Below, in pieces: positions 1 through 20,084 of a DNA stretch of 64,000 nt. A program made the translations under genes and the position numbers. The stretch comes from Candidatus Omnitrophota bacterium (GTDB taxonomy: Bacteria; Omnitrophota; Gorgyraeia; Zapsychrales; Zapsychraceae). The stretch lies in NCBI GenBank assembly GCA_035292445.1, contig DATDQB010000023.1, positions 89,533 through 153,532 of the forward strand. Reading direction: 5' to 3'. The first letter of the stretch is position 1; the number at the start of each line of letters is the position of its first letter. Under the pieces are notes generated by a model. It was not told the origin of the DNA, did no database searches, and was given only the letters and a program-made list of their open reading frames with translations.

Positions 1-1900
1 GTTTTGAGTGAGAGCTGATCCATAACCAGCACAATTCGCAGAATTGGGAACACTGCCGCTGCAAGTGCAAGCCGTTACAGAACAGGATTGATTTGTATAT
101 GATCCTGACAGCGAGCCGTTGTTGCATGTGCGGGTCTCACTGACGCAAGAGCTGCCGCAAGAGACAGAAGAGGATTGATAGGCGGTGACGTTATTCCCGT
201 GAAGAACCGTTGCCCCCCACGGCGCCGTACAATTTTGCCCGCAAGAATTGGAATTAGGATTCCATGAGCCGTTGGTACAGGTATAACTGCACGCTCCGCT
301 ATAGCCGCCGATACAAGAACCGGCGGATTGCCCATGATTACTGGCCGTGAGGTTGCAGGTACCTATCGTTTGGGCCGTGCAAGGATCCCAGGGATTGCAG
401 GTGTTGGAAACTCTTGAAAGGCCGCCACTATTGCATTGGTATTGGCAAGAACCGTCTTCAGCGCAGCTTCCGCCCGATTGACCGCTATTAAGAGCCGGGA
501 CCGTGCATGCCGAAGCGCCTGAACCATAAGTTTTAGCAGGACAATTTGGCGCTACGCAAATTCCGCCTGTGTCTGGATCAAACGGCGGCCCTATGGGATT
601 GCTTGGGTCCTGGCAACAAGGATTGCCTCCGGGGGTTACAATATCTGAATCATTGCTGCAATGCCAGTCGCAGCAGCTGCCTCCGCCAACTTCTTCTGAA
701 ACGCATTCAAAGCAACCAACAAGAGAAGTGCAATCAACGATACCTGAACAGCCCCCTTGGCCGCATTGACCGGGTGTTCCACCACCACCGCAGGTATCAG
801 GGGAGGTACAGCTGCCGCAGTTAAGGGACCCTCCGCAAAGATCGCTTATGGTTCCGCAAGTAGCTCCTTGGGCGGCACAGGTTGTTGGCGTACACCCGCA
901 GACATTGGGCGTACCTCCGCCGCCACATGTTTCGGGTGAGGTACAACTCCCGCAGTTTAATGTCCCCCCGCAACCGTTGTTAATACCAGAGCCGCAATTA
1001 AATCCTAAGCTGTTGCAGGTAGCCGGCGTGCAGCAGCTGTTATTAAAACAGACTTGAGCGCCGCAGGAGCAATCAGCAGGGGAGTTCCCGCAGTTCTCAG
1101 CGCAGTTACATTGACCGTCATTAGGGTTGGTCCCGCAATCTTGACAACAGTTTGTGGATGTTTCCGGTTTATCCGCACAACAAATAACAAGGTCTCCACA
1201 GGCATCCGCGCAATCTTTGCATCCGAGCTGATTATTTATCGCTTCACCAGCATCTGCACAGCAAACGCTGTCATTATTATTGCCGCAATCTTCACAGCAT
1301 CCGGTTGTTGCAGTGTATGGGGTTTCACCAACGCTACAGATAGCATCTCCGCAGGGAGGCGTCACGGGGCAAGTCCCGTTGGCTTTCGTTTCGCCGGCAC
1401 CGGCGGCAGAAGCCGTTGATCGGCAGCATTCAGAGTTGCTGGGGGAAGACGTATCGGAAGGGCCAGCGCAATACCAATCACAGCAATTCGCAGGGCCCAA
1501 ATCGTCTAGCATGCCTTCTAGGATACAAGTGCCACAATTGCCGTCATGAGAGGCGCATAGGGACGTGTCACAGCAAGGGCCCACCGTGATTCCGGCCAAA
1601 TTTGATTGCCCACTGACAACGGCTTGGAGGAAACTTTCAAATTCCGTTAGTGTTTTTGTGGGGACAAAAATATCAAAACCGGAAGTATTGCTAATACACC
1701 AATAATTGGACACCCGTGTACCATCGGTAGCCGAGGTCGCGCCAAAAGATGACGTATATTGATCACAAGATGAAGAGTTTTGGCATTGAAACCCTCCGCC
1801 AGTGACGGGAATATTGCCGGGTAATTGGGCAAAGGCAAGCGAGGCCCAGCCCGCCATTAGTAGAAATATGAAAGCTGATTTTTTAAACCTTTGGTCGACC
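1..1900 (-). CDS. Giant cysteine-rich secreted repeat protein, tandem paralog (partial; start codon at 1898-1900, C-terminus runs off window start)
   Basis: The minus-strand frame from ATG 1898-1900 encodes MVDQRFKKSAFIFLLMAGWASLAFAQ..., nearly identical to the N-terminus of the 2014..6516 protein. My hand translation stays open for about 633 codons to position 1. It has the same Cys/Gly/Ser/Asn-rich modules (CGGTLNCGSCTSPETCGGGG, WGATVLHGNNVTAYQSSSVSCGSSC...SGSYTNQSC). Nucleotide identity blocks match 4541-6560. Confidence 0.6.
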
Positions 1901-1935
1901 ATGATTAAAATTGGCGCGCCTTAAGCTCCTCGATT
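1..1935. repeat. Segmental duplication, copy B (mosaic homolog of 4541-6560)
   Basis: Positions 1-60 are identical to 4541-4600. Conserved blocks (about 870-1080 vs 5541-5700; 1380-1935 vs 5960-6560) are interleaved with diverged blocks. The copy includes 35 nt homologous to the 3' end of the tail-fibre gene (1901-1935 vs 6517-6551). Confidence 0.8.
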
Positions 1936-2013
1936 TCTTTTTGACGGGGAGATCTGACCCCAGTTATTCTTTCAAAAATTAGGAAGATGTGAGAAGCGAC
2001 ACCATTTTTTTTC

Positions 2014-5000
2014 TTATCCTAATGAACACGATTCAAAGGGGTATCCAGGGCAATCTGTATCAGTGCAACATGGGCCGCCTCCTTGATCACACGAAAGCAA
2101 AGGCGGACACCAAACCCAGTTGCTACAATTATCTTGTACCGAGCCACAACCAGTCGGGCTCCATCCGTCGCAAGGATCAATAGGGACGCAAGACTGTGAG
2201 CAATTATCGGACTGGCTGGTCCAGTTGCCTCCGCTGTCACAAAAAGCACTCACCGTACCGCTGCAGCCACCCGGGCAGGCGTTCGGTCCCCAATTTGTGT
2301 TGGCTGTCCAACCACCAGGAAGCGTTACGCTGCCGCAGCCATTGCCGGTGGTATAACCTTGCGAAGAGCAGGTTGGCGGGCCCCCGCTGCAAGTCGAGCT
2401 TGTCGGTCCGGACCATACAGAATTTTCACAATCATAGCTAGCCGATCCCGTATCTGGTCCAGTTGAATCAGTGACAGTGGTAGAATTACCGCTGGCCGCT
2501 CCTGTCGTACTACCTGAACAATTAAAACCGCCGGCGCTCCAATTCATTGGTTGAACACCGCAAGCCAGCTTGTATGCCGTACAGATACCAGAGTTAGTAC
2601 AAGGAGGGCCTGAGGCCAGACATTGCCAACGCCACTCGAATGTCGCATCGATCGGGCTAGTGTCTATGGTTCCGGAGGAACAGCCAACGGCTTGTGAAGG
2701 TTGCGAGCCATATGTTCCCGGCGTACTGCCACAAACACCGTTAGTGCAAGGAGCATTACATGTAGCATTAGGCGTGCTGTCACAACAGGATATGGTACCG
2801 TTGGCGGCCGAACCCCCAAAACACAAAGCATCTTCGTCCCCTGAAGTATTACAAGTACCGCTGGTGCCAATCGGGGTCCACGAACCGGAAGAGCATTGGT
2901 ATTCCTGCGTTCCTGAGGTCGTATCGCAAATACTTGATGGACCAGGACTTTTACAGCAGAATGAAGCCCCCTGAGCATGCGTACCTGAAGTACATTGGGC
3001 ATCGGGAAGGGTGTTTGTCCCGTTGCAGCCCGTTCCCCCGCTTGTCCATCCGCTGAATGAGCAAGTATAAGCATTAAGCTGATCGCAGATATAGTTTTGC
3101 CCCGATGTCCAAATGGCCCAACCTCCCGCTGCTCTGGGTTCGCCGCAATAGGCATCGAAAGAGCCGGTAAAATTATCCTGTTCGTTGACAATATAATGAA
3201 ATTCTCCACAACGGCCATCCGCAGGTGTTATACCTTGACAGAAAGTTTGCCAGCCCTTCAATTGTCCACCAGGGCAGCCATCACAACAGTTTTTATAGGT
3301 ATAACTGCCGGAGAGCGTACCTGCCGTACAGGTGCGTGTTTGCGATCTAGAAGAGCATGATGTGTCCCATGTCGGTGTAGGTAGAGGCGTGGGTTCTGAA
3401 TAGGCCGTTACACTTTGAGTGTTCAGTACGGTATCAGGGCCGGCATCCGACCAGGTAATTGGACAGTCTTGGATGCTGGCTTGACAAACGTTGCCTGAAC
3501 AATTATTGCTGCAGCATTGGCTATTAGCTGTACAACCGGCACCGTCACTGCAACAGGAGGTGTTACAAGCTTGTGAGCTTGATCCAGAACAGTTGGCGCC
3601 GCCGCACGAAGGAGCAGGATTATCGCAAGTACGTGTTTGGGTACCACCGCCGCAAGATACGGAACAAGCGCTCCAACCGGACCATCCGCCATTAACAGGG
3701 GAACAGCTGAAGTTACAAGTGCCCCCTGGACAATCAGCGGCGCCTGTACAACATTTGTACAAATTCGAGCATACTCCTTGACCGACCGGACAACAGCCCC
3801 AATACCAGTCGGTAGTACAAGTGTTGCCGCAGGCACCCACAGGAGTTGCTCCGGTGCAACCCGGCGCGCTAGGACCTACACACTTCAGACCGCTGGCACA
3901 AGTCTTGTTGGTACATTGGTTGGCAGCATTACACCAGTTAGCTCCACAGGTAATTGAACAGGACGCATTTGTATATGAACCGGATAAGCTCCCATCATCA
4001 CAAGTACGTGTTTCACTGATACAGGTACACTGCTCTGTACCATTCAAATAAGCGGTAACTGAACTGCCAGAACTGATGCTTCCTCCCCAAGGTAAATTAC
4101 AAGGATTCTTGGTTTTCGAGCACATGCCGCTGGGTGAACAGCCAAGCCCTTGAGGAGAATCGTCACAATGCCATCGCCATTCCGCAGAAGTATCACCATA
4201 AGTTGCCTGGCTAGGAGTCCCTTGGGTACAGCCATCCACAACACTGTTATCGCATTGACCGTTGTCACATATCCCACAACTTTCCTCTGCGCCCGGACAG
4301 CTTGGAGAGCCTGTGCATTGAGTATTAGTGCAATATGTATTGCCGTCATCGCTACAAGTGGTGCAGTCTGTGCCTGCGCCACCATCACAGCATATAAGAT
4401 TAGCCGCTATGGGTGTTCCGTTGTATCCCACGCAACTGTTACAAACACATGAACCTCCGGAGGCCGTGTAACCGTTAATACATGTAACAGCGCAATGATC
4501 GCCCCCTCCAGGACAAGAGGAAACAGCTGTTGCCGTTCTGTTTTGAGTGAGAGCTGATCCATAACCAGCACAATTCGCAGAATTGGGAACACTGCCGCTG
4601 CAAGTGCAAGTCGTTACTGAACATGACTGGTTCGTATAAGAACCGGATAAAACGTCGTTATTACATGAGCGGGTCTCACTGGCGCAGGAGCTGCCGCAAG
4701 ACACGGAAGAGGATTGATAGGCGGTGACGTTATTCCCGTGAAGAACGGTCGCCCCCCACGGCGCCGTACAATTTGCCGAACAATTATTTGTTTTATTGAC
4801 CCAAAGACCGACGTTGTTACAATCCGCGCTGACCGTTCCGGTACAATTTCCCGGGCAGGCTGTTGAATAGGGAGTGCTTAGCGCTTGACCGCCCGGCAAG
4901 GTGACATTACCACAGCCGTTGCTGGTCGTGTAGGCTTCGTCAAGACAGGCTGACCCTACGCACGTAAAGTTGACTGTGGCCCCGTTCACCGAATAGTTAA

Positions 5001-6516
5001 AAGTTTGACCGTTACTTAACCCGGGATGGGCGGTCGTAAGGACGTTCCCTGCACAGAACGGCCCGAAAGTATTGTTATCGTCGTCTGTATATAAACTAAC
5101 GCTGGCAGGATCTCCGCTGCCGGAAGTCAGTCCTCCCGGGTTGGCGCATACTCCAGCCGGCGCGCGATCCGAACGCGACCAGCTGGTGGCGTTGTTAGCG
5201 CCGGAGCCCGAGACATTCCAAAGCGCGGCAAAGGTGCCGCTTCCTCCAACAATGGCCCGGGTATTGCACGTTACGCTGCTCTCATTGCCCCAGCAATCCA
5301 TACGCAAACATCCTGAACCTGATCCAGGACTGGAAGGGTTACAATTAGCATCGCAAGCGCCTGTACAACCAAAGCCAGACCCGTTACAGGCGGCACCGGC
5401 CGAGCCCTTGCAATTGGGGGTATAATCCCCGCACGTATCAAATGTATTATGACAACAGCCCGAGCAGCATTCATCATTTTGGCTACACGGGTCACTATCG
5501 GCAAAACATGAAGGAGTACCACAAACGTTTGCAACGCCGCCACCGCCGCATGATTCGGGAAATGTACAACTCCCGCAATTTAATGTCCCCCCACAACCGT
5601 TGTTAATACCAGAGCCGCAATTAAATCCTAAGCTGTTGCAGGTAGCCGGTGTGCAGCAGCTGTTATTAAAACAGACTTGAGGGTTGGTACAGGCGCAGTC
5701 GGCAGGCGAGTTGCCGCAATTTTCGCTGCAGTTACACGCGCCATCATTGGTTTGCGACCCGCAATCCTGGCAGCACGTATCAGATCGTTCATTCAGATCC
5801 GCACAACAAATGACGGTGTCTCCGCAGGTATCCGCGCAATCAGAGCAGTATCTCTGATCATTTACTACCTCTCCATCGGCGGGGCAGCAAAAGCCGTCAC
5901 TGTCTGTGCCGCAGTCCTGACAGCAAGCGGGGTTAAAGACTTCACCAACGCTACAGATAGTATCGCCGCAGGGAGGCGTCACGGGGCAAGTACCGTTGGC
6001 CTTAGTTTCAAGGGGGCCGGCGGCAGAAGCGGTGGACCGGCAACACTCAGTACCGTTATTTTGGGCAGACGTATCGGAAGGGCCAGCGCAATACCAATCA
6101 CAGCAATTCCCTCGCCCTAACATGCCTTCATCGACACAGGTGCCACAATTGCCGTCATGCGGGGCGCATAAAGTAGTGTCACAGCAAGGGCCCACCGTGA
6201 TTCCGGCCAAATTTGATTGCCCGCTGACAGCGGCTTGGAGGAAACTTTCAAATTCCGCTTGTGTTTTGGTGGGGACAAAAATGTCAAAACCGGAAGTATT
6301 GATAATACACCAATAATTGGATACTCTTGTCCCATCGGTAGCCGAGCTCGAGCCAAAAGATGATGTATTGAGGTCACAATAAGGCGTATTACTTGGGCAT
6401 TGAAACCCTCCACCAGTGATGGGAATATTGCCGGGTGTTTGAGCAAAGGCAAGCGAGGCCCAGCCTGCTATCAGCAGAAATGTGAGAATTGATTTTTTAA
6501 ACCTTTGGTCAACCAT
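2014..6516 (-). CDS. Giant (1500 aa) secreted cysteine-rich modular protein with a thrombospondin type-1 repeat and internal repeated modules; likely surface adhesin/fibre component
   Basis: Single long ORF with an N-terminal signal peptide (MVDQRFKKSILTFLLIAGWASLAFAQ). Cys is roughly 15%. A canonical TSP1 motif (WSGWSACSVSCGGGTQTRTCDNPAPSCGG) lies at about nt 3547-3690. It is tightly coupled to the upstream tail-fibre gene (2-nt gap). Repeated modules: three WG..SVTAY...SGSYTN..SC, two GCG.VTLPGG, two EWRW.C. Confidence 0.75.
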   Translation of the reverse strand: MVDQRFKKSILTFLLIAGWASLAFAQTPGNIPITGGGFQCPSNTPYCDLNTSSFGSSSATDGTRVSNYWCIINTSGFDIFVPTKTQAEFESFLQAAVSGQSNLAGITVGPCCDTTLCAPHDGNCGTCVDEGMLGRGNCCDWYCAGPSDTSAQNNGTECCRSTASAAGPLETKANGTCPVTPPCGDTICSVGEVFNPACCQDCGTDSDGFCCPADGEVVNDQRYCSDCADTCGDTVICCADLNERSDTCCQDCGSQTNDGACNCSENCGNSPADCACTNPQVCFNNSCCTPATCNSLGFNCGSGINNGCGGTLNCGSCTFPESCGGGGVANVCGTPSCFADSDPCSQNDECCSGCCHNTFDTCGDYTPNCKGSAGAACNGSGFGCTGACDANCNPSSPGSGSGCLRMDCWGNESSVTCNTRAIVGGSGTFAALWNVSGSGANNATSWSRSDRAPAGVCANPGGLTSGSGDPASVSLYTDDDNNTFGPFCAGNVLTTAHPGLSNGQTFNYSVNGATVNFTCVGSACLDEAYTTSNGCGNVTLPGGQALSTPYSTACPGNCTGTVSADCNNVGLWVNKTNNCSANCTAPWGATVLHGNNVTAYQSSSVSCGSSCASETRSCNNDVLSGSYTNQSCSVTTCTCSGSVPNSANCAGYGSALTQNRTATAVSSCPGGGDHCAVTCINGYTASGGSCVCNSCVGYNGTPIAANLICCDGGAGTDCTTCSDDGNTYCTNTQCTGSPSCPGAEESCGICDNGQCDNSVVDGCTQGTPSQATYGDTSAEWRWHCDDSPQGLGCSPSGMCSKTKNPCNLPWGGSISSGSSVTAYLNGTEQCTCISETRTCDDGSLSGSYTNASCSITCGANWCNAANQCTNKTCASGLKCVGPSAPGCTGATPVGACGNTCTTDWYWGCCPVGQGVCSNLYKCCTGAADCPGGTCNFSCSPVNGGWSGWSACSVSCGGGTQTRTCDNPAPSCGGANCSGSSSQACNTSCCSDGAGCTANSQCCSNNCSGNVCQASIQDCPITWSDAGPDTVLNTQSVTAYSEPTPLPTPTWDTSCSSRSQTRTCTAGTLSGSYTYKNCCDGCPGGQLKGWQTFCQGITPADGRCGEFHYIVNEQDNFTGSFDAYCGEPRAAGGWAIWTSGQNYICDQLNAYTCSFSGWTSGGTGCNGTNTLPDAQCTSGTHAQGASFCCKSPGPSSICDTTSGTQEYQCSSGSWTPIGTSGTCNTSGDEDALCFGGSAANGTISCCDSTPNATCNAPCTNGVCGSTPGTYGSQPSQAVGCSSGTIDTSPIDATFEWRWQCLASGPPCTNSGICTAYKLACGVQPMNWSAGGFNCSGSTTGAASGNSTTVTDSTGPDTGSASYDCENSVWSGPTSSTCSGGPPTCSSQGYTTGNGCGSVTLPGGWTANTNWGPNACPGGCSGTVSAFCDSGGNWTSQSDNCSQSCVPIDPCDGWSPTGCGSVQDNCSNWVWCPPLLSCDQGGGPCCTDTDCPGYPFESCSLG

Positions 6517-6560
6517 GATTAAAATTGACGCGCCTTAAGCTCCTCGATTTCTTTTTTTAA
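4541..6560. repeat. Segmental duplication, copy A (5' third of the giant gene plus the tail-fibre gene 3' end)
   Basis: Homologous to 1-1935; see copy B. Confidence 0.8.
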
Positions 6561-7784
6561 CGCTTCGATTTGCGCCTGTTGTTCTTTAACGGCTTGGATG
6601 AGCGGCGCAACGAGATTTCCGATCTTCACTGTTTTCATTTTTGTTTGTGGATTTGTAGCCACCAATTCCGGTAAAACAGTTTCAACATTTTGGGCGGTCA
6701 CACCCACATCGGCAACGCCGTTTTCTTTCCAGTTAAACTTAACGCCCTCCAGCTTCATAATGGTATCTAGGCCGGAGACGGGTTTGATATTTTCTTTAAG
6801 ATTTTCATCTGAGACATAAAAAAAAGCATGCGCGGTTACATTGCCAGAGCCAGTACCAACAGTATTATTTGTGGTCACATATAAATCTCCTCTGATCCAA
6901 GTTATTCCATTAGCATTGGTTCCAGGGAGAATAGTTGCGCTATCACCCACAAGAAGTCGGGGGGAGGCAACGGCTGTGTTAGGTATAGCGCCTGGAGTCC
7001 CGCCAATGCCGACGTTGCCGGCGTTATTTATTGCGACTCGTTCCAGATTGTTTGTGCCAAATCTCAGAAGGCCATTCTCGTAGTTCCATATTTGACCATC
7101 AGCTGCGGTGTACTGTTCAAAAATCAGCCCATCGGTGGCAGTGATACCTGTGCCACTATTCGTGGAGCGCACAGTTCCCCCACTCGTCGCCGCAGCATTA
7201 TGAATATGCAATTTACTATTTGCTGTCGTCGTCCCGATGCCGACGTTGCCGGCGTTATTTATTCTGACTCGTTCCGCATTATTTGTGCCAAATCTCAGAT
7301 AGCCATTCTCGTAGTTCCATATTTGACCATCAGCTGCAGTGTTTTGTTCAAAAATCAGCCCATCGGTGGCAGTGATACCTGTGCCACTATTCGTGGAGCG
7401 CACAGTTCCCCCACTCGTCGCCGCAGCATTATGAATATGCAATTTACTATTTGCTGTCGTCGTCCCGATGCCGACGTTATTGGTTGCTGTCGACAAATGG
7501 ACGTAGCCGGGGCCGCCAACGGTATAGGACCATAAATCATAAACAGGGCTGACGACGCCTGCGGCGGTGCACATCATTAATTGATTGCTGTTATTGATCC
7601 ATAAAAGTCCTGTATTGCCGGAGGCGCCGGAAACGCAAGTAGGAACTGACGCTGTGGGGACAAGGCGGAGCTGGTTATACACACCGAAAGGAGCGGGGTA
7701 ATAGGTGGATAATGAAAGCGTTTCGGCATGGGCGATCAAGGAGAGGTTTACAATAAAGATGGTAAGAAAGAATACTTTCTTCAT
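6519..7784 (-). CDS. Tail-fibre-like secreted protein with C-terminal S74-type intramolecular chaperone (endosialidase chaperone) domain
   Basis: Signal peptide (MKKVFFLTIFIVNLSLIAHA). Repetitive NVGIGTTTANSKLHIHN... fibre-like repeats. The C-terminus (VSDENLKENIKPVSGLDTIMKLEGVKFNWKENG...GNLVAPLIQAVKEQQAQIEALKKEIEELKARQF) is typical of the self-cleaving chaperone domain of phage tail spikes and bacterial fibre proteins. The stop lies 2 nt from the start of the giant gene. Confidence 0.8.
   Translation of the reverse strand: MKKVFFLTIFIVNLSLIAHAETLSLSTYYPAPFGVYNQLRLVPTASVPTCVSGASGNTGLLWINNSNQLMMCTAAGVVSPVYDLWSYTVGGPGYVHLSTATNNVGIGTTTANSKLHIHNAAATSGGTVRSTNSGTGITATDGLIFEQNTAADGQIWNYENGYLRFGTNNAERVRINNAGNVGIGTTTANSKLHIHNAAATSGGTVRSTNSGTGITATDGLIFEQYTAADGQIWNYENGLLRFGTNNLERVAINNAGNVGIGGTPGAIPNTAVASPRLLVGDSATILPGTNANGITWIRGDLYVTTNNTVGTGSGNVTAHAFFYVSDENLKENIKPVSGLDTIMKLEGVKFNWKENGVADVGVTAQNVETVLPELVATNPQTKMKTVKIGNLVAPLIQAVKEQQAQIEALKKEIEELKARQF
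7011..7472. repeat. Near-perfect 231-bp tandem repeat (2 copies, 77 aa each) inside the tail-fibre-like gene
   Basis: The protein block GIGTTTANSKLHIHNAAATSGGTVRSTNSGTGITATDGLIFEQNTAADGQIWNYENGYLRFGTNNAERVRINNAGNV is duplicated with 4 aa differences. DNA copies are nearly identical, offset by 231 nt (the gccgacgttgccggcgttattta motif occurs at 7008 and 7239). Confidence 0.9.
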
Positions 7785-7883
7785 TTTTTATACCTCGCAG
7801 ATAAAATATTTTTATTAAACTTAGTATCTATCTATCCTATAGTAAAGTCAAGAAGATACCTGATTTTTTGGGGTATTTATCAA

Positions 7884-7916
7884 ATAAAAAAACCTATTCT
7901 TTTGAAAGAATAGGTT
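7884..7916 (-). terminator. Rho-independent terminator (minus strand)
   Basis: Perfect inverted repeat aacctattcttt/aaagaataggtt. On the minus strand it is followed by a T7 run (plus-strand aaaaaaa at 7884-7890). Confidence 0.6.
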
Positions 7917-8215
7917 TAGGAGATTCTCGATGTCTGCAACTGGCTATCCTGACCGTCAATAGCGATCGAGGACCCTATAGCTTTGTTCCTGCTTCGCCAA
8001 AGCGCTTTCGCCTTTGGCTTCGCAGGACTCTGCGAAGCTCAAACATGAAAATTTTTGAGCGTAGCAGAGGCCCTATCCTTTCAGATAGTTTACCTTTGAA
8101 GACAACTTGTCAATATGTATCAATGGACAACCCAATGCTTATATAAAGTATTTAATATATATATGGAAAAGTCAACCTGTACTTGTCGAAGGACCGGGGC
8201 AGCTAAAAGGGGGCT

Positions 8216-9163
8216 TTAAGACGATACCGGGCCCCGTTTATCCCGGACAAAGTTGCTTTTATCCTGGGTCTTGGCAAAGCGCTTGAGCTCGGCCCCGATC
8301 TCGGAAATCTGGGCCACATGGGTGATCTTTTGGGCGGTATTACTGACGACCCCGATGGATACGGACAATAAGCCGAATTTTTGCGTTTGGCCCTGGCGGT
8401 CTTTGGCCACGATATAGCCCCGTTCGAGGTCTTCTTTGGAATAAAACGACGGCACCTTTTTATCAAAATCCTTAATTACGGCTTTGCAGACATTGTCCAT
8501 AACGGCATCTTCAGTAATGAACACATAATCATCGCCGCCGATATGGCCGATAAAAGCGTCTTGCCCGCCGATATTGCGGACGTTCTTGATGAGGATACGG
8601 GCCAATTCTTTAATGACCTCATCGCCTTTTTCAAATCCATACTTATCGTTGTAGGCCTTGAATTTGTCGATATCCGCGTAGCCGACGGCGAAAGGCTTGC
8701 CCGATTCGATCTGATGGCTCATCTCTTCCATGATGGAGGTGTTGCCTGGAAGATGCGTCAGGGGGCTTGCATCCAGGCTGCGGCTGGTGCGCCGCAGGAT
8801 CATTTTGATGCGCGCCAGAAGCTCATCCGGCGCGAAGGGCTTGACCATGTAATCATCGACGCCGGCTTCAATGCCGTCGATCCTGTCTTTGACCTCGCCT
8901 TTTCCGGTCAGCATGATGACGGGGATGTGGGAAAGGAGGATGTCTTTCTTCAAAAGCCTGCAAAATTCGCGGCCGTTCATGACCGGCATCATGTAATCGC
9001 AAAGGATAAGATCCGGCAGTTTTTGCTGGACGAGCTTTAAGCCTTCTTCGCCGTTTCTCGCCTGAAAGACCTCATAATTCTCGGACAACGTCAGGTCCAG
9101 GACATCCAGGATGTCCGGGTCGTCGTCGACCGTAACAATTTTTTCTTTTCTCGAAGTAGGCAT
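8216..9163 (-). CDS. Response regulator, REC + GGDEF-type diguanylate cyclase domain (active-site motif reads GGDDY)
   Basis: The N-terminus has receiver hallmarks (VDDDPDILDVL, LILCDYMMP, MLTGKG). The C-terminus is a GGDEF fold (YADIDKFKAYNDKYGFEKGDEVIKELA...GHIGGDDYVFI). Confidence 0.85.
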   Translation of the reverse strand: MPTSRKEKIVTVDDDPDILDVLDLTLSENYEVFQARNGEEGLKLVQQKLPDLILCDYMMPVMNGREFCRLLKKDILLSHIPVIMLTGKGEVKDRIDGIEAGVDDYMVKPFAPDELLARIKMILRRTSRSLDASPLTHLPGNTSIMEEMSHQIESGKPFAVGYADIDKFKAYNDKYGFEKGDEVIKELARILIKNVRNIGGQDAFIGHIGGDDYVFITEDAVMDNVCKAVIKDFDKKVPSFYSKEDLERGYIVAKDRQGQTQKFGLLSVSIGVVSNTAQKITHVAQISEIGAELKRFAKTQDKSNFVRDKRGPVSS

Positions 9164-9171
9164 TTTAATAT

Positions 9172-10701
9172 TTATTTGTTTTTAGATGGCTGGGCCGGCT
9201 GAGCCGCAGGGGCTTCCGCTTTTTTAGGTTTGACCGGAAGCGTAAAATGGAACGTCGTTCCCTGGTTGACCGTGCTTGTTACCCAGATTTCCCCGTGATG
9301 GGCCTCAACGATTTTTTTCGCCAGGGCCAACCCCAAGCCGGTCCCCTTGACGTTCTGGTTTATTTTATTATCAACGCGGAAAAATTCACTAAAAAGTTTT
9401 CCCAGATCATCTTCGGGGATGCCGATGCCGGTATCGGAAACGCCGATTTCCACAAGGTCTTTTTCTTTATCCCATGTCGCTTTAACCGAGATTGTCCCGT
9501 TTTCTGGCGTAAACTTGACGGCGTTGCCCACAAGGTTGATGAAAATGCGTTCTACCTGGCTCGAATCATAAATCATGTTGGGAACGTTTTTATCCACGTT
9601 TAATTCCCAATTGATGTTTTTGTTTTTCATCTGCGGCGTTAGTAGATCATGCACGTTTTCAGCCGTTTGGCGCAAGTCGTGCTCGGTCATTTTCATCTCC
9701 ACGCGCCCCGATTCGATGCGGGAGATGTCCAGTAGTTCATTGATAAGATTGACGAGGTTATCCGAGTGGAGGTTGATTTTCTCCAGCCGTTCTTTGACCT
9801 TTTCCGGGATCTCACCGAGCTTGCCGGTTATCAAAATGGCGGCATACCCTTTGATCGAAGTCAAGGGCGTTCGCAGCTCATGGGAAACGGCGGAGATAAA
9901 ATCGGACTTTGTTTTGCTTATTTTTTTTACCTCTGCCAGGGCGTCTTCCAGCTGTTTGGTGCGGTCCTGCACTTTGGATTCCAGCGCCCGGCTGGAGCGA
10001 TAAACCTGTTCGAATAAACGGGCGTTTTCCAACGACTGCCCGATCTGGTTGGCTAAAATGGAGAGGATTTCTTCGTCACCTTCGGTCACGGCCGCCGCCG
10101 ACGATTGGTTACCGACAAAAGCGATCCCGATAAGGCCGTTTTGGGTGAGGATCGGGGAAAGCACAAAATGTTCGCTGCCGAAAATATTTTGGATCGCTTT
10201 TTTTCTTTGCGTGGCAGCGGCGACGGAAGAGAAGATATGGCCTTGCGTCAGGGCCTCCAGCAGGCTTGAATCTTTCTTGAGGCCGTTGAGGATATATTCG
10301 ATGCCTTCGGGGGCGTAACCGACGTTGACCCTGGGCTTAAGCTGTTTGCGTTCATCGTAAAACAGGATCAGCATTTTATCGAAATCCAGATTTGTCTGAA
10401 GCGATTCATTCAAGCGGTGAAAGATTTCGTTCTCATCGAGAGTGGTACTGATAAGCCGGGACGTTTTATGAAGCGCCTCCAGGCCTCCCAAGCGTTTGTC
10501 GGATTCTTCCTGGGCCTTATTAAGCTCCAGATCCGTTTTAACGATCAGTTTGGCTTGCTCATCGAGTTCGTTGAAGGATTTTTTGAGTTTAAGAAGAGAG
10601 CCTCTGGTTTGATTGAGTCGAGAATTTTTTGATAAAATAATAAAGATCAATACGCAGATGACAATAAAGGCAAGGATATTGAAAATAAGGGAGATGCTCA
10701 T
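9172..10701 (-). CDS. Sensor histidine kinase (N-terminal TM, coiled coil, GAF-like, HisKA, HATPase_c)
   Basis: H-box SHELRTPLTSIKGY. N, G1 and G2 boxes (NLVGNAVKFT, DTGIGI, GTGLGLALAKKIVEAHHGEIW). Confidence 0.85.
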   Translation of the reverse strand: MSISLIFNILAFIVICVLIFIILSKNSRLNQTRGSLLKLKKSFNELDEQAKLIVKTDLELNKAQEESDKRLGGLEALHKTSRLISTTLDENEIFHRLNESLQTNLDFDKMLILFYDERKQLKPRVNVGYAPEGIEYILNGLKKDSSLLEALTQGHIFSSVAAATQRKKAIQNIFGSEHFVLSPILTQNGLIGIAFVGNQSSAAAVTEGDEEILSILANQIGQSLENARLFEQVYRSSRALESKVQDRTKQLEDALAEVKKISKTKSDFISAVSHELRTPLTSIKGYAAILITGKLGEIPEKVKERLEKINLHSDNLVNLINELLDISRIESGRVEMKMTEHDLRQTAENVHDLLTPQMKNKNINWELNVDKNVPNMIYDSSQVERIFINLVGNAVKFTPENGTISVKATWDKEKDLVEIGVSDTGIGIPEDDLGKLFSEFFRVDNKINQNVKGTGLGLALAKKIVEAHHGEIWVTSTVNQGTTFHFTLPVKPKKAEAPAAQPAQPSKNK

Positions 10702-10702
10702 A

Positions 10703-11890
10703 TCAGTTAACCGCCAGCACCACCATGCTTTCGTTTTGAAGATAAGGTTTCTTGATGCGTTCTACCGATTCAAAAGGGCAGATCTCGCCGTGGGCGTACA
10801 TGCCGAATACGGGGATGTCTTGGCCGAAGATTTCTCTGATTTTGGCGATCTCAAGAATGGCGCCTCGGCCCAGGAGCTTTAGCCGGGACATCGATTCGAT
10901 GATGATCACAAGCTTGGCTTTCTTCCCTAAAAGGTTATTATGGGCTTCCTGGGCGGCTTCGGAGGCGGCCTCTTTGCAGGAGTCCTTGTTGCCGATCATG
11001 ATGTGAACTTCCGACCCGTCCGGCACCCCTCCCTGACATACAATACTCCCATCCTCTAGAATGTCAATAGCATTTCTCAGCAAGAAATGGTTACTTTCCT
11101 CGATAAATATTCCTAAAGGGTAAAGGATGGACATTTGTCCCAGTTGGGTGGCGCGTAAATCCTGATACGCTTCATCGAAATATTCCTCATACAGATGGGA
11201 TGCCTTTTTCCCGTCAATCGTTTTGATGATGTTGCCCTCGGCCTGGGTGATGACGCGGGGTTTTCCCAAAGGCCGCCAGCCGTGGCGTCCGCTCACTCCC
11301 ACACTCATCTGCCCGCCCATGATCAGCCCGCAAGCGGACATCTCCAGCGCTTGGGAACCGAAGATCTGGAAATTTTTTTTGAAATGGAAATCATCGCAGC
11401 TGCCGGCCCCGACCAGCGGAAAAACGTTGCCGAGCACTTCCTGGACGCCTTTTAACAGAAGGGAGCTGTCGGCAATTTCTCCGTCGATAAAGAAAAGGCA
11501 GACGTGCCGGCCGTGTTGCCCGAAATCCGCGACGATATTTTTGGCCAGATCGCTTCCGGCCATGCGGATGTTGGTGGGGGTGATATCGGAAACGGCGCCG
11601 ATGCCGAATTTCATCTCATCCGAGGCGATGGCCAAAATGCCGATTCCGTTGGTCATGATTTTTTCCGAAAAGATGATGCCCGCGCTTGAGCAGCCGATCG
11701 CCTTTGACCCGGGAAAGAGGTTATCAATGGCCTGGGCGATGGTATCAGGGTCGTGGTGAATGGTGCTGAAGATTAACACCAGATCGGGCTTCGTTGACTG
11801 AAGAGAGGATTTGATTTTCTGCGCCGCTTCTTTGGTGGCGGTGAGCGTATCAACGGTTTGGCTTGAGCCTATTGCGATGTGTGTGGCCAA
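10703..11890 (-). CDS. FIST-domain sensory protein
   Basis: Two-part FIST N/C architecture. It is co-operonic with the HK (1-nt gap) and the RR. Confidence 0.7.
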   Translation of the reverse strand: MATHIAIGSSQTVDTLTATKEAAQKIKSSLQSTKPDLVLIFSTIHHDPDTIAQAIDNLFPGSKAIGCSSAGIIFSEKIMTNGIGILAIASDEMKFGIGAVSDITPTNIRMAGSDLAKNIVADFGQHGRHVCLFFIDGEIADSSLLLKGVQEVLGNVFPLVGAGSCDDFHFKKNFQIFGSQALEMSACGLIMGGQMSVGVSGRHGWRPLGKPRVITQAEGNIIKTIDGKKASHLYEEYFDEAYQDLRATQLGQMSILYPLGIFIEESNHFLLRNAIDILEDGSIVCQGGVPDGSEVHIMIGNKDSCKEAASEAAQEAHNNLLGKKAKLVIIIESMSRLKLLGRGAILEIAKIREIFGQDIPVFGMYAHGEICPFESVERIKKPYLQNESMVVLAVN

Positions 11891-15364: not shown

Positions 15365-15460
15365 TAAAAACTCAATCAAGAAAAGAAGTGATTGAAATTT
15401 TTATAAATCATGGTATCCTTTTTATGGACTTATAATTTTTTTATCTTTAGAAAGGAGTTT

Positions 15461-16309
15461 ATGATGGAAAACAAAGGGTTTAAATTGGCGCTAGTAATCG
15501 CGCTCGGTGTTTTTTTGGGCGTTCTTGTCGTGTCCGCCCAAAAGCAGGACGCTCTTCTTAGAGAAGTTTTAGGCAGGCAAAATCAGATGCTCCAAGCCCA
15601 GATGAGGCTTGATTCAAAAGTGGGCAGCCAGGATATGGCGGGCGCCAGGGGTTTGATGCAGTCAGAAATCGATAAGCTCACGTCAAAAATCAGTGATTTG
15701 GAAACTCGCTTGGCCCGTTTAGAATCTCAGCCGCGCCCTCAACAGGTTCAGCAGCAGCCCACGCCGCAGCAAATGCCCCCGCCGGATACGACCGTCCATG
15801 AGATTCCCGTGGCCCATTCTGTAGTTGGAGGCGCTAAAGACGGCAAGGTCACTATCGTTGAATTCGTCGATTATCAATGTCCTTTTTGCGCGCGTTTTCA
15901 CCCTCCGATGGTGGAGGCGGCCAAAGCATTTCCCGGGAAAGTTAAGTATCTCTTGAAGCATTTTCCGTTATCGTTCCATCCGCAGGCAAAGCCGGCAGCC
16001 AAAGCAGCGTTAGCCGCAGGCGAGCAAGGCAAATTCTGGGAAATGACCGAGCTTATTTTAGGTAATCAAACGCAACTGACGGATCAGCAATTCGAAGCCT
16101 ACGCCAAACAGCTTGGGCTGAACGTCAAGAAATATCTGGAAGATTATAAAAATAAAGACGCTGAATACGAAAAAATCCTTAATACGGACATGGAGTTGGG
16201 CGGTAAGGTCGGAGTGCGGGGAACACCGTCGTTTTATATCAACGGCCGCGTGAGCAACTCCCGCGATGCCGCCAGCTGGAAGGCTGAGATAGAAAAACTC
16301 TTGAAATAA
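15461..16309 (+). CDS. Membrane-anchored DsbA-family thiol:disulfide oxidoreductase
   Basis: AGGAG RBS before ATG 15461. TM helix, coiled-coil and Q/P-rich linker, then a thioredoxin fold with CPFC. Confidence 0.75.
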   Translation: MMENKGFKLALVIALGVFLGVLVVSAQKQDALLREVLGRQNQMLQAQMRLDSKVGSQDMAGARGLMQSEIDKLTSKISDLETRLARLESQPRPQQVQQQPTPQQMPPPDTTVHEIPVAHSVVGGAKDGKVTIVEFVDYQCPFCARFHPPMVEAAKAFPGKVKYLLKHFPLSFHPQAKPAAKAALAAGEQGKFWEMTELILGNQTQLTDQQFEAYAKQLGLNVKKYLEDYKNKDAEYEKILNTDMELGGKVGVRGTPSFYINGRVSNSRDAASWKAEIEKLLK

Positions 16310-16335
16310 GTAATATAAGTATTAATATTTCCAAA

Positions 16336-16375
16336 AAGGCCATGTTTCTCTTAAGGAGCGTGGCCTTAATTTTTC
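16336..16375 (+). terminator. Rho-independent terminator after the dsbA-like gene
   Basis: aaggccatg...cgtggcctt stem (one G-U) followed by aattttt. Confidence 0.55.
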
Positions 16376-16440
16376 ATTTGATAAAAGGGGCAATTCATTA
16401 TATATTTGTGGGACGTTGAAATTAGGTTAACTTAAGAAAA

Positions 16441-16494
16441 GAGGCCGCCCGCCAAGAGCGGGCGAGCCTCGTTCATCCCGCCTTTGGCGGGATG
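16441..16494 (+). promoter_or_regulatory. Two GC-rich hairpins forming a structured 5' leader immediately upstream of the L27-like gene
   Basis: gaggccgcccgccaagagcgggcgagcctc (nested 11-bp stem) and catcccgcctttggcgggatg (9-bp stem, loop ttt). A GGGAG RBS follows at 16508. Confidence 0.5.
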
Positions 16495-16518
16495 ATAAAA
16501 ATGAACGGGAGCAATATC

Positions 16519-16806
16519 ATGGGTGGTCGCGTAGGTGGCATATCGCATAAATTTTACCGGGAAACCAGAGGCATTAAAGTAAGCGGCGGCCAGGTTGTCA
16601 AAGCCGGCACGATTCTCACGCGCCAGGGTCACAAATGGCGGCCAGGCATTAACGTAATCGGGTTAAATCATTTGACGGCTAACGTCGAAGGTGAAGTTTA
16701 TTTTACCCGTAAAAAAAGTCGGTTTAATAAATCCATCACATACATTAATATCAAACCGGTTAAGATCAAAGCCAAAGTAAAATCAACGGCAGCTGCATCC
16801 AAATAA
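16519..16806 (+). CDS. Divergent ribosomal protein bL27-like protein, standalone (no rplU upstream)
   Basis: GGQVVKAGTILTRQGHKWRPGINVIG...HLTANVEGEVYF aligns with the L27 core (GxxIxxRQRGT...G.NVG...TLFA..G.V.F). The N-terminus and a K-rich C-terminal tail are atypical. A good RBS precedes ATG 16519. The stop lies 1 nt from the glmS start. Confidence 0.5.
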   Translation: MGGRVGGISHKFYRETRGIKVSGGQVVKAGTILTRQGHKWRPGINVIGLNHLTANVEGEVYFTRKKSRFNKSITYINIKPVKIKAKVKSTAAASK

Positions 16807-16807
16807 T

Positions 16808-18646: not shown

Positions 18647-18715
18647 TCGTCAGACGTCAGACTTCAGTCGTCAGATCGATTGACTGAAGACTGATGACTG
18701 AAGACTGATGACTTT

Positions 18716-19369
18716 ATGCTATATATAATTTCCACCCCCATCGGTAATCTCAAAGACATTACCCTGCGTGCTATCGAGACGCTTAAGCACGTCGATTTGA
18801 TAGCCGCCGAAGACACGCGCCATACCAGAATTCTTTGTAAAGAATACGGGGTTGATGTGCCGTTAACGAGTTATTTCGAGCATAATCAATTTAAAAAAGG
18901 CGATTATATCATTGAGCAGCTAAAGCAAGGCAAGAACGTCGCGCTCGTGACGGACGCCGGCACGCCGGGCATCAGTGACCCTGGTTACAAATTAATTAAT
19001 CTCGCCAAACAAAATAACATTTCCATTACCGTTGTTCCCGGGCCCGCTGCGGTCGTCGCGGCGTTATCTTTTTCGGGTTATCCGAGCGACCGCTTTATCT
19101 TCGAAGGCTTCCTGCCGGTCAAGCCGGGGCAGCGGCGCAAAAAGCTCGAATCGTTAAAGGACGAAGAGCGCACCGTCATCTTTTATGAATCCCCGCATCG
19201 TTTGTTAAAATCGTTGAAAGACATCGAAGAGGTCTTGGACGACCCAAAAATTTTTATCGCGCGTGAGCTGACGAAAAAATTTGAAGAGGGTATTGAGGCA
19301 AAAGCGAGCGAGCTGATCAAACATTTCTCCCAGAAAGGCGTGAAGGGGGAGTTTGTTATTATATTGTAA
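18716..19369 (+). CDS. rsmI: 16S rRNA (cytidine1402-2'-O)-methyltransferase
   Basis: MLYIISTPIGNLKDITLRAIETLK...AAEDTRHT tetrapyrrole-methylase fold typical of RsmI. Confidence 0.9.
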   Translation: MLYIISTPIGNLKDITLRAIETLKHVDLIAAEDTRHTRILCKEYGVDVPLTSYFEHNQFKKGDYIIEQLKQGKNVALVTDAGTPGISDPGYKLINLAKQNNISITVVPGPAAVVAALSFSGYPSDRFIFEGFLPVKPGQRRKKLESLKDEERTVIFYESPHRLLKSLKDIEEVLDDPKIFIARELTKKFEEGIEAKASELIKHFSQKGVKGEFVIIL

Positions 19370-19380
19370 GGAGGTGAGCC

Positions 19381-19662: not shown

Positions 19663-19757
19663 TTTTTTTGCCTTTTTTTAAAATTTCCATTTTTTCGCTT
19701 TGTCATTCCCCCAAGCTATGCAAGAATAGAAACGCTCAATAAAGGGGGTGATTTTCC

Positions 19758-20030: not shown

Positions 20031-20050
20031 ACAGATTCGTTAGTTAAGAA

Positions 20051-20084
20051 GGGGCAGTTTCAGGGTTGAAACTGCCCCTTTTTC
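20051..20084 (+). terminator. Rho-independent terminator
   Basis: ggggcagtttc agggtt gaaactgcccc followed by tttttc. Confidence 0.75.

Follow-up and report, generated by a model that had tools for sequence, protein, structure and literature searches.

A chromosomal S74 fibre gene paired with the gene of a secreted cysteine-rich partner: a candidate two-gene surface module in Candidatus Omnitrophota

Overview

A gene for a fibre-like protein that ends in an S74 domain is followed, at tight spacing, by a gene for a secreted protein, and this order recurs across distant lineages with a partner that is hypervariable behind a conserved N-terminal domain. Our favoured reading, held with a little better than even confidence, is that the pair forms a chromosomal two-gene module consisting of a surface fibre and an exchangeable adhesin. 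A secreted fibre/adhesin module had been proposed from the sequence of one such locus. Conservation of the pair at about 11 loci and the lack of a phage context support that proposal; two of its original supports, a duplication of the pair as a unit and TSP1 repeats in the partner, do not hold.

Organization of the gene pair

The stretch analysed, here called the window, is 64,000 nt of Candidatus Omnitrophota bacterium (assembly GCA_035292445.1, contig DATDQB010000023.1, positions 89,533 to 153,532 of the forward strand). All coordinates are window positions, and the pair reads on the minus strand (Table 1). The limits of both reading frames agree exactly with those first given, and the junction reads TAA-TC-ATG, confirming the 2-nt gap between the S74 gene stop and the start of the giant gene (g1). 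A candidate promoter lies ~39 nt 5' of the S74 gene ATG, and a candidate terminator may set the fibre operon apart from the upstream response-regulator/GGDEF gene. The consensus scan placed promoter-like and terminator-like sites only in the region 5' of the S74 gene, which we count in favour of an operon, and found no terminator-like site on the minus strand among the S74 gene, g1 and its paralog (g2).

The g1 leader contains GAGGAG at positions -24 to -19. Co-translation of the two genes had been called almost certain; it is plausible, but not a certainty, given that g2 has the same leader and no reading frame with a start codon ending there. The leader by itself is thus presumably enough for translation to start.

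Table 1. Features of the gene pair and its surroundings
Feature	Position	Strand	Description or basis
Paralog g2, 5' part (aa 1-634)	1..1902	-	Open reading frame starting at 1902, running off the window start
Copy of the 40-nt leader, remnant of the S74 gene 3' end	1903..1942	-	39/40 nt identical to 6517-6556
Giant partner gene g1, 1500 aa, signal peptide	2014..6516	-	Open reading frame, composition, motif inspection
Single TSP_1 module (PF00090), aa 944-989	3550..3687	-	GWSGWSACSVSCGGGTQTRTC...; Pfam on excised segment
Conserved N-terminal 'FVPTKT' domain of g1, aa 27-112	6181..6438	-	...WCIxNTSGxDIFVPTKTxAEFxSF...GITVxPCC
40-nt leader of g1	6517..6556	-	35 last coding nt of S74 gene, TAA and 2-nt spacer
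S74 fibre gene, 421 aa	6519..7784	-	Open reading frame; signal peptide, conserved N-terminal segment, beta-rich shaft, chaperone domain
C-terminal intramolecular chaperone/autoprotease domain (predicted)	6522..6815	-	From S324-D-E-N-L-K329; Pfam, alignments, AF2, Foldseek
Tandem duplication, 231 bp, 2.0 copies, 95 % matches	7006..7478	-	Tandem Repeats Finder
Conserved mature N-terminal segment of fibre	7530..7724	-	ETLSLSTYYPAPFGVYNQLRLVP...C...GLLWI...C; 10-homolog alignment
Predicted Sec signal peptide of fibre	7725..7784	-	MKKVFFLTIFIVNLSLIAHA/E; judged by eye from sequence
Candidate sigma-70-like promoter	7823..7851	-	TTGACT-17-GATACT; consensus scan, 9/12 matches
Candidate terminator-like hairpin and T-run	7890..7917	-	Consensus scan alone

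The paralog g2, in full, encodes 1492 aa with 204 Cys (15883-20361 of the parent contig, L001). The remnant of the S74 gene 3' end upstream of it is real, and its reading frame holds no start codon. This remnant had been taken to show that both genes were duplicated together, making the pairing ancestral. DNA homology between g1 and g2 begins merely 40 nt 5' of the ATG, so the remnant marks a duplication of the giant gene only: on sequence comparison, the giant gene alone appears tandemly duplicated, with its left breakpoint within the S74 gene 3' end. The two copies form a mosaic, with identity of 70-81 % over aa 1-300, 80-88 % over aa 601-800 and 19-43 % elsewhere.

The S74 fibre protein

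The fibre protein is entered at NCBI as HLF18961.1, 'tail fiber domain-containing protein [Candidatus Omnitrophota bacterium]'. The predicted S74 domain is borne out by an HMM match to PF13884 (E=9.8e-15, 55 bits vs a cut-off of 22, aa 325-375) and by the sequence S324-D-E-N-L-K329, which corresponds to the SDxxxK motif defined for S74 domains (PMC10769870) and provides the catalytic Ser-Lys dyad. S324, D325 and K329 are invariant among 10 aligned homologs; in a 66-sequence alignment D325 and K329 remain invariant and S324 is nearly so (at least 90 %). The AF2 model has pLDDT values of 81-97 over aa 321-420, and Foldseek matches this region to the ICA domain of MyRF (7DC3, 8.8e-5, TM 0.63 on target), T5 (4UW8, 9.8e-4) and K1F (3GW6, 4e-3). 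The C-terminal domain is thus predicted to fold like solved S74 domains. In phage spikes and fibres and in Bd3182, the S74 domain is described as an intramolecular chaperone that cuts itself from its own chain (PMC10769870); judged by family membership, the window fibre would do the same.

In all close homologs the conserved mature N-terminus begins directly behind the signal peptide. The segment that follows is the best-conserved stretch besides the S74 domain, contains two invariant Cys residues in the 10-homolog alignment and is a candidate anchoring or docking region, modelled by AF2 with low confidence. The tandem duplication corresponds to two 77-aa shaft units with a NVGIGTTTANSKLHI motif, also seen in translation, and this region aligns to the repeats of the Bd2133 fibre. 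The mature part is short (~300 aa), and the AF2 model has no distinct tip domain.

Searches with the whole fibre point in the same direction. It matches PHROG tail-fibre families (best 1e-29); phmmer against the PDB retrieves Bd2133 (8OND, 8.8e-7), Bd2439 (8OL4, 8.1e-5) and, weakly, the S16 gp37 structure 6F45. The best Foldseek matches of the model are Bd2133 (2e-5), MyRF ICA, T5 pb1, Bd2439/Bd3182 and K1F 3GW6, with 8OND, 8ONF, 8ONC and 8OML as the top entries. The window fibre therefore most resembles the S74 subgroup of the MAT (mosaic adhesive trimer) fibres of Bdellovibrio bacteriovorus (Caulton et al. 2024, PMC10769870), with which it shares a chromosomal gene, a signal peptide and a terminal S74 chaperone with an SDxxxK motif. 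By sequence and model comparison its shaft appears homologous to the trimeric MAT shafts, and trimer formation is predicted. The window fibre has 421 aa, compared with MAT constructs reaching residue 922 to 1151; in size alone, its N-terminal segment (~65 aa, weakly modelled over aa 20-60) contrasts with the ~130-aa beta-rich MAT N-domain.

The secreted partner and its N-terminal domain

The description of g1 as a giant, cysteine-rich protein with a signal peptide is accurate: it contains 178 Cys (11.9 %) and has a Sec-like N-terminus (MVDQRFKKSILTFLLIAGWASLAFA/Q). No C-terminal anchor motif was found in it, and Pfam and NCBIfam gave no match to the whole protein or to most of its pieces. Its designation as a TSP1-repeat protein is not borne out. 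The whole protein has no Pfam match; one module, detected only when its segment is scanned separately, passes the TSP_1 threshold (28.4 and 31.3 bits vs 21.6; E about 2e-6 to 2e-7), and nine of ten overlapping g1 pieces lack a TSP_1 match at E up to 1. The W-S-x-W-S-x-C motif occurs once in g1 and not at all in g2, where even the shorter W-S-x-W is absent. From its sequence, g1 is a protein with a single TSP1 module amid unclassified disulfide-rich modules.

At every paired locus the partner opens with a ~70-aa domain that we call 'FVPTKT'. The family signature is an export signal or membrane anchor followed by GY-x-V...C-x-I-x-N-x-SG-x-D-[YI]-F-[VI]-P-T-K-T-x-x-E-[FW]-x-x-F...G-[VI]-T...C. 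In a 17-sequence alignment P, E and F are invariant and N, F, T and T nearly so; g1 and g2 match the family HMM, which was built including both, at E=2e-53. Searches of Pfam, NCBIfam, PHROGs and the PDB gave no match to the domain, BFVD gave no structural match, and two pattern scans of a viral contig collection gave no relative. An alpha/beta fold is predicted for it from a 7-sequence alignment, with five models ranging from pLDDT 53 to 81.

Homology among partners is limited to this domain; the L015 and L022 proteins, for example, share 39 % identity, confined to their first 84 aa. The region behind it is hypervariable, being Cys-rich or containing Laminin_G_3 (L014) or Gly_rich_2 (L019), and total lengths span about 190 to 1500 aa. 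Giant size is, by these sequence comparisons, particular to the window lineage, and the conserved feature of the partner is the unannotated N-domain.

Conservation of the pairing

Sampling seeded with the N-domain gave 14 metagenome loci, 12 of them with inspectable upstream sequence. An S74 gene lies immediately upstream at 8/12, 2.4 kb away at one, and is absent from three. From the fibre side, the partner is present beside all close S74 homologs (L003, L004, L006) and at two of seven distant S74 loci sampled (L022, Parcubacteria; L023), the other five being without it. The pair stands at about 11 independent loci with unrelated flanking genes, and is not unique to this genome. Because the flanking genes differ, the adjacency is not accounted for by common descent of the entire region. 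Taxonomic assignment covers four lineages only (Omnitrophota twice, Parcubacteria and one archaeal contig). The S74 gene sits -14 to about +50 nt upstream of the partner (gaps of -14, -4, -4, -1 (ATGA overlap), +1, +2, +10, +13, +24, +28, +28 and about +50 nt), and ATGA stop/start overlaps occur at three loci.

The closest syntenic relative, L008, has FIST, kinase and response-regulator flanks 70-87 % identical to those of the window, and there the giant homolog comes directly after the regulator, without an S74 gene. An S74 gene beside the partner is also absent in L011 and L018. The pairing is therefore not obligatory and the partner can occur alone. The S74 gene being dispensable in the same neighbourhood speaks for an incidental, functionless adjacency; the same order and tight spacing at so many independent loci effectively refute that reading, to which we give almost no credence. 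The giant N-terminal region is only 33 % identical between the window and L008, against 70-87 % for the flanking genes, and together with the g1/g2 mosaic this sequence divergence indicates that the partner evolves fast.

The loci without an S74 gene also bear on a more serious alternative, in which the two products are physically independent surface proteins, the operon serves co-regulation only and the N-domain binds another envelope element. Each protein has its own signal peptide or membrane anchor, and the leader presumably also serves the expression of g2, which has no S74 gene to itself. Adjacency that persists is usual where proteins interact or must be made in a set ratio, and here it has outlasted all other neighbourhood change across very distant lineages, with the ATGA overlaps as a further point against independence. 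We give this alternative roughly one chance in four of being correct, stated as a minority view beside the fibre-and-adhesin module.

Some upstream S74 proteins are approximately a membrane anchor plus the S74 domain alone (174 aa in L013). Such proteins fit the term 'fibre' poorly and suggest that the S74 domain itself may be what counts. Gene 1 might then aid folding, oligomerisation or processing of the partner in trans and build no fibre of its own, a rather improbable arrangement in our estimate. It draws on L012/L013 and L010, where the anchor is separated from the S74 domain by 50-70 residues, and on the S74 domain being the most conserved part in all upstream genes. We know of no report of an S74 domain acting in trans. 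The S74 proteins cited above are described as cleaving their own chain (PMC10769870), and g1 has no SDxxxK-type site beside its N-domain. The window protein also has a full beta-rich shaft; because a recent internal duplication has lengthened it, the shaft itself is suggested to be under selection.

Chromosomal context

The window neighbours of the pair are a FIST/histidine kinase/response regulator-GGDEF cluster, a tRNA gene and genes for a D-Ala-D-Ala carboxypeptidase, a DsbA-like protein and GlmS, and related loci are likewise embedded among housekeeping genes. Phage structural genes are absent from the surroundings of the pair, both in the window and in L003, L004, L022 and L023. The best reading is that the pair is a chromosomal module and not a phage remnant.

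T-even phages encode a tail fibre followed by a separate tip adhesin (the gp37/gp38 type), and a fibre-then-adhesin order recalls such pairs. The window pair shares with them this order and the division into a conserved attachment part and a hypervariable binding part. To our knowledge, gp38-type adhesins have no sequence or structural relation to the N-domain partner, and, unlike gp37 and gp38, both window proteins are predicted to be exported by Sec. The pair could still be what is left of a prophage, a tailocin or a contractile injection system, given that many PHROG tail-fibre families match the fibre and that the distant S74 homologs L026 and L028 lie in phage-like contexts. Against this origin are the lack of any further phage gene near the pair in the window or at related loci, an N-domain without a PHROG family, BFVD match or viral contig relative, and the export signals on both proteins, which virion proteins normally lack. 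We regard a phage remnant as very unlikely. The window fibre has the Pfam family, catalytic motif and C-terminal fold of K1F endosialidase (3GW6) and T5 pb1 (4UW8), and differs from these phage fibres in its export signal, the absence of a virion context and a secreted Cys-rich companion without phage relatives.

Proposed mechanism and relation to known systems

In the fibre-and-adhesin module that we favour, gene 1 would encode a Sec-exported fibre whose C-terminal S74 domain nucleates trimer folding and then cuts itself off at Ser324, leaving a mature fibre of ~300 aa. Gene 2 would be expressed from the same transcript, starting 2 nt past the stop codon, and its product secreted with the alpha/beta 'FVPTKT' domain at its N-terminus. 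The binding surface would be formed by small modules (one TSP1, Sushi-like and several unclassified) in a long, fast-evolving and fully disulfide-bonded array. The partner lacks a C-terminal anchor of its own. The N-domain would keep it at the cell surface, where either the fibre trimer or the same element of the envelope could be the docking site, and tandem duplication with module shuffling, as between g1 and g2, may diversify binding specificity. Two membranes are assumed for Omnitrophota, and the proposal does not include a route across the outer membrane.

In MAT fibres the variable adhesive tip lies within the same chain, whereas the window has its variable, adhesin-like part in a second protein encoded downstream. 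The main text of the MAT paper (PMC10769870) does not use the word 'operon'. The description of g1 recalls the Cys-rich extracellular proteins of Peribacteria (CPR), which average ~1650 aa, carry a signal peptide, are unannotated and strain-variable and have been proposed to serve attachment (Anantharaman et al. 2016, PMC4736985). The likeness is one of description (large size, signal peptide, very high Cys content, lack of annotation); the CPR proteins are a composition class, not a homologous family, for which that paper mentions neither a conserved N-terminal domain nor an S74/tail-fibre neighbour ('tail fib' is absent from its text).

Omnitrophota are described as nanobacteria with host-dependent traits, in which giant proteins may serve adhesion and for one class of which a predatory or parasitic lifestyle has been proposed (PMC10066038). 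Their giant ORFs (PMC10066038; bioRxiv 10.1101/2023.11.21.568195) resemble g1 in phylum, secretion, few annotated domains and a proposed role in cell-cell adhesion. They are much longer (30,000 aa or more in 10.1101/2023.11.21.568195) and have domains of the dockerin, thrombospondin type 3, SecA or peptidase kind, whereas the TSP module of g1 is type 1. Cysteine, S74 and tail fibres go unmentioned in these two papers and in the preprint 10.64898/2026.06.07.730766, also on Omnitrophota.

Implications

The pair recurs in other uncultivated bacteria and on one archaeal contig, and for that reason we regard it as a probable, so far undescribed device for surface attachment. A broader and more speculative possibility, which we hold only tentatively, is that ultra-small, host-dependent prokaryotes share horizontally a dedicated apparatus for attachment, made up of the S74 fibre and the 'FVPTKT' partner, with a trimeric, S74-matured stalk onto which separately encoded, exchangeable adhesins dock via a new N-terminal domain. 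If so, the apparatus would span Omnitrophota, CPR/Patescibacteria and at least one archaeal lineage, and its exchangeable adhesins would decide which host or prey cell is recognised.

The fibre gene and its giant partner

The fibre gene encodes a 421-residue protein and is followed on the same strand by g1, an open reading frame for a giant protein of 1500 residues, with 2 nt between stop and start (...CAA TTT TAA TC ATG GTT...). The genes around the pair are ordinary chromosomal ones: a FIST protein, a GAF histidine kinase, a response regulator with a GGDEF domain, a tRNA-Glu gene, an endonuclease/phosphatase-family protein, a methyltransferase, a D-Ala-D-Ala carboxypeptidase, a DsbA-like thioredoxin and GlmS. 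No phage context is present among these neighbours, and a prophage or tailocin reading of the pair was rejected in part on this ground. In a consensus scan, one terminator-like and one promoter-like site lie 5' of the fibre gene, each a consensus match only, and no terminator-like site falls on the minus strand between the fibre gene, g1 and the next giant gene, g2.

The genes for the FIST protein, GAF-histidine kinase and response regulator-GGDEF form a cluster immediately 5' of the fibre operon, which may reflect c-di-GMP-linked regulation of the giant gene. The gene for the DsbA/Thioredoxin_4 protein lies about 8 kb from the giant genes, whose products would each require roughly 90–100 disulfide bonds.

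Coordinates of features in the window and at related loci
Feature	Sequence	Position	Strand	Remark
S74 fibre gene	window	6519–7784	(-)	421 aa
Giant gene g1	window	2014–6516	(-)	1500 aa
Giant gene g2	window	starts at 1902	(-)	continues past window start
Tandem duplication in fibre gene	window	7006–7478	(-)	231 bp, 2.0 copies, 95 % matches; two 77-aa shaft units
g1/g2 leader copies	window	1903–1942 and 6517–6556		39/40 identical
Terminator-like site	window	7917–7890	(-)	5' of fibre gene; consensus match only
Promoter-like site	window	7851–7823	(-)	5' of fibre gene; consensus match only
FIST/histidine kinase/GGDEF cluster	window	8216–11890		upstream of fibre operon
DsbA/Thioredoxin_4 protein	window	15410–16309	(+)
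Minimal pair	L013	4722–6611
Ribosomal S27ae, S24e and Rpb7/RpoE genes	L013	2431–4543		beside minimal pair
Region with common genes	L015	2209–6921		low-GC
Region with common genes	L022	44–8359
680-aa Cys-rich protein	L004	7518–9560		upstream of pair
Region with PilM and 170-aa gene	L019	7230–9200
Region syntenic with window	L008	1–3341		no S74 gene

The fibre carries an intact S74 motif. Pfam places a Peptidase_S74 domain at residues 325–375 (E=9.8e-15), and directly N-terminal to it S324-D-E-N-L-K329 matches SDxxxK, the defining catalytic motif of self-cleaving S74 chaperones (PMC10769870). Ser324, Asp325 and Lys329 are invariant in the 10 closest homologs; among 66 homologs Asp325 and Lys329 remain invariant and Ser324 is conserved in at least 90 %. 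Many PHROG tail-fibre families also match the protein, as do, by sequence, two of the solved Bdellovibrio MAT fibres, Bd2133 (8OND, 8.8e-7) and Bd2439 (8OL4). An AlphaFold model computed from the 66-sequence alignment (mean pLDDT 78, >90 in the S74 domain) has Bd2133 as its first fold match, then the MyRF ICA domain, T5 pb1, Bd2439, Bd3182 and the K1F chaperone. Domain match, motif, tail-fibre matches and modelled fold thus fully confirm the tail-fibre-like S74 protein of the original prediction, and the Bdellovibrio adhesive fibres are its closest characterised relatives. The fibre N-terminus resembles a Sec signal (...LIAHA|ETLS) and runs into a stretch that all close homologs conserve (ETLSLSTYYPSPFGVYNxLRLVP..C..GLLWI..C). 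From the two shaft units of the tandem duplication, the fibre seems to have been lengthened recently.

The product of g1 begins with what resembles a signal peptide, has no recognisable C-terminal anchor, and contains 178 cysteines (11.9 %) in a sequence rich in Gly, Ser, Thr and Asn and poor in charged residues. A Pfam scan of the whole protein gave no match, and g1 was accordingly read as free of TSP1; this reading was dropped since the composition filter masks a single TSP_1 module that a piecewise scan reveals at residues 944–989 (28–31 bits against a cut-off of 21.6). The pieces gave no further significant Pfam or NCBIfam match. With one such module, 'TSP1-repeat protein', the description first proposed, overstates the case. 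By eye, g1 contains other recurring disulfide-rich modules: CCxDCG, 'PWG...SVTAY...LSGSYTN', 'EWRW' and Sushi-like units. NCBI accessions exist for the fibre (HLF18961.1, 'tail fiber domain-containing protein') and three other window proteins, and the exact 1500-residue g1 is recorded from ENA only; its annotation in the NCBI record may differ, or may be that of a pseudogene.

A conserved N-terminal domain defines the partner family

Only the N-terminal domain of the partner is conserved (residues 27–112 of g1). Its consensus in two alignments (A3 and A5) is GY-x-V ... C-x-I-x-N-x-SG-x-D-[YI]-F-[VI]-P-T-K-T-x-A-E-[WF]-x-A-F ... G-[VI]-T ... C, and we refer to it as the FVPTKT domain; its structure prediction ran on a 7-sequence alignment. 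The body that follows is hypervariable, with total protein lengths from about 190 to 1500 residues. The bodies consist mostly of Cys-rich modules, with Laminin_G_3 in one metagenomic partner (L014) and Gly_rich_2 in another (L019), and the partners at loci L015 and L022 can be aligned over their first 84 residues only.

The family is difficult to retrieve. An exhaustive phmmer search of the domain against 1.84 billion representatives returned 8 matches; besides the query's own protein, P0135, P0136 and P0141 are convincing, and the remaining matches, multi-stretch and in repetitive proteins, were taken as spurious. This scarcity arises partly because the HMMER composition (bias) filter discards long Cys-rich targets: g1, g2 and the giants L003 and L006 are dropped despite otherwise strong matches, and local hmmsearch recovers the long giants only under --nobias. 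A word-indexed search with residues 1–185 of the giant found no match, not even the query protein, and one with the domain profile found 2 small fragments only. Against NCBIfam, neither the fibre nor the domain nor any piece of the giant had a relevant match. The same filter probably hides the family from standard annotation pipelines, which may explain why it is without annotation.

The pairing recurs in distant lineages

Our main result is that the pairing is conserved. The best full-length fibre homologs, all metagenomic, are 35–46 % identical. On two long homolog contigs a large Cys-rich gene comes directly after the S74 gene (1434 residues at L003; at least 511, to the contig end, at L004), and both products combine a signal or membrane-anchor start with a domain that aligns with the FVPTKT domain of g1. 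Two short contigs carry two S74 genes in tandem, then a further gene at 0–30 nt. A scan of genome contigs for the domain, which used narrow search patterns and hence returned two loci only, detected the L003-type locus in two MAGs of a single Omnitrophota lineage. Metagenomes yielded 14 loci, 12 with usable upstream sequence. An S74 gene lies immediately upstream in 8 of these 12 (L010, L012, L013, L014, L015, L017, L020, L021), counting the near-identical L012 and L013 separately and L017, which is on the same contig as L004; it is 2.4 kb away at L019 and absent upstream at three (L008, L011, L018).

We also sampled 7 more distant S74 homologs on long contigs. A partner was found at two, overlapping by ATGA at L022, a Parcubacteria group bacterium (LiPW_41) by the NCBI name of its S74 protein, and separated by 1 nt at L023. 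The other five have no partner: L024 is a pilin-type protein, L025 belongs to Vicingaceae and sits beside CHU_C and PorP/SprF-family genes, L026 and L028 are phage-like, and L027 is archaeal. Across all pairs the genes are arranged as in an operon, on the same strand and with gaps of -14 to about +50 nt, and the flanking genes differ at each locus. Chance adjacency was rejected because the same order and tight spacing recur within these differing flanks. The recurrence extends over distant lineages, of which four are assigned.

The pair at L013 lies on an archaeal contig, beside genes for ribosomal proteins S27ae and S24e and an Rpb7/RpoE-type RNA polymerase subunit. Here a 174-residue protein, a membrane anchor plus S74 domain, overlaps by ATGA with a 232-residue FVPTKT-domain protein. 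The latter contains a degenerate TSP1-like motif, and a 143-residue paralog upstream shares the anchor of the S74 protein and has no Pfam match. S74 proteins as minimal as those of L012 and L013 (174 residues) prompt a secondary rival reading, in which the S74 domain might act in trans on the partner and would not build a fibre of its own.

Several loci have additional genes. L015 and L022 have further genes in common upstream of the pair, one for a cupredoxin-like protein (41 % identical) and one for a protein of about 450–480 residues (26 % identical), which represent either an extended module or mere kinship of the two organisms. At L004 the pair is preceded by a 680-residue protein with 21 % Cys and CCxDCG-type repeats, whose N-terminus, KAQTSVEYMILLAVVVAIVLVGF, we take to resemble a type IV pilin-like (class III) signal. 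L019 contains the type IV pilus gene PilM (Pfam 3e-51) and then a 170-residue gene with a hydrophobic segment, and the distant S74 homolog at L024 (P0018) has a prepilin-type N-terminus. A link between S74 fibres and pili is possible.

Duplication and rapid divergence of the partner

The partner is subject to tandem duplication and module shuffling. On the 205-kb parent metagenome contig (ENA ERZ27254861) g2 is complete and encodes a 1492-residue paralog of g1. DNA homology between g1 and g2 begins 40 nt 5' of the ATG, continues in two blocks at 81–84 % identity (roughly residues 1–340 and 600–800), and gives way elsewhere to 19–43 % identity at the protein level. The 40-nt leader of g2, a copy of the fibre gene 3' end, had been taken as evidence that the two genes were duplicated as a unit. 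This argument fails: homology starts just 40 nt ahead of the ATG, and the 72 nt from the g1 stop to the leader copy contain no S74 similarity. The simplest history suggested by these sequences is that the giant gene alone was duplicated in tandem and that the left breakpoint fell a short way inside the S74 3' end. The reading frame of the leader copy has no start codon, so g2 presumably starts translation on this leader without an upstream terminating ribosome. The 2-nt gap makes co-translation of fibre and g1 plausible, short of the near certainty first proposed; the g2 leader weakens the case for strict translational coupling of g1 without excluding it.

Locus L008 is syntenic with the genes upstream of the window pair (FIST 73 %, kinase 70 %, response regulator 87 % identical) and has a giant homolog directly after the regulator, with no S74 gene. 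The fibre gene is therefore not indispensable for the partner. The N-terminal region of the L008 giant is only 33 % identical to g1 against 70–87 % for the flanking genes, so the partner is diverging much more quickly than the genes around it, as would be expected of an exposed binding protein.

Proposed function and significance

The observation behind the original prediction is largely correct and its interpretation holds in part, the argument from joint duplication excepted. A more fitting description of the arrangement is that of a conserved 'S74 fibre plus FVPTKT-domain partner' module, whose window version has an unusually large, duplicated and Cys-rich partner. By analogy with known S74 proteins (PMC10769870), the fibre would form a trimer and its chaperone domain would cut itself off at Ser324. 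Since the partner lacks its own anchor and the FVPTKT domain is its sole conserved element, we propose that this N-terminal, membrane-proximal domain attaches the partner either to the fibre itself or to the envelope element that the fibre also uses; the variable body would then bind targets. Fibre and partner would function together and may interact physically; the chief alternative is that the two are co-regulated and make no contact.

The fibre behaves like the S74 subgroup of the Bdellovibrio MAT fibres and is detectably related to it, a comparison that lies outside the defining N-terminal domain of that superfamily. Large Cys-rich exported proteins with a proposed attachment role were described in CPR genomes (PMC4736985), and an adhesin role has been discussed for giant proteins of Omnitrophota (PMC10066038; bioRxiv 10.1101/2023.11.21.568195); in the open-access literature found there is no mention of an S74 or tail-fibre neighbour, or of the FVPTKT domain. 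Bacterial S74 adhesive fibres are known, and the partner domain beside them here is unannotated.

Little is known about the means by which uncultivated nanobacteria, Omnitrophota and CPR bacteria among them, recognise other cells and hold on to them; the main candidates discussed in the papers found are type IV pili and giant proteins with poor annotation (PMC10066038, PMC12206443). The module joins a fibre related to MAT, which is proposed for Bdellovibrio prey recognition, to a hypervariable disulfide-rich partner, and would be a natural system in which binding specificity resides on a separate, rapidly shuffling protein. The FVPTKT domain would provide a sequence marker for locating such loci. 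As a small, easily recognised pair conserved across domains and recurring in several uncultivated lineages, the module would offer concrete, clonable candidates for host recognition and testable ones for cell-cell recognition.
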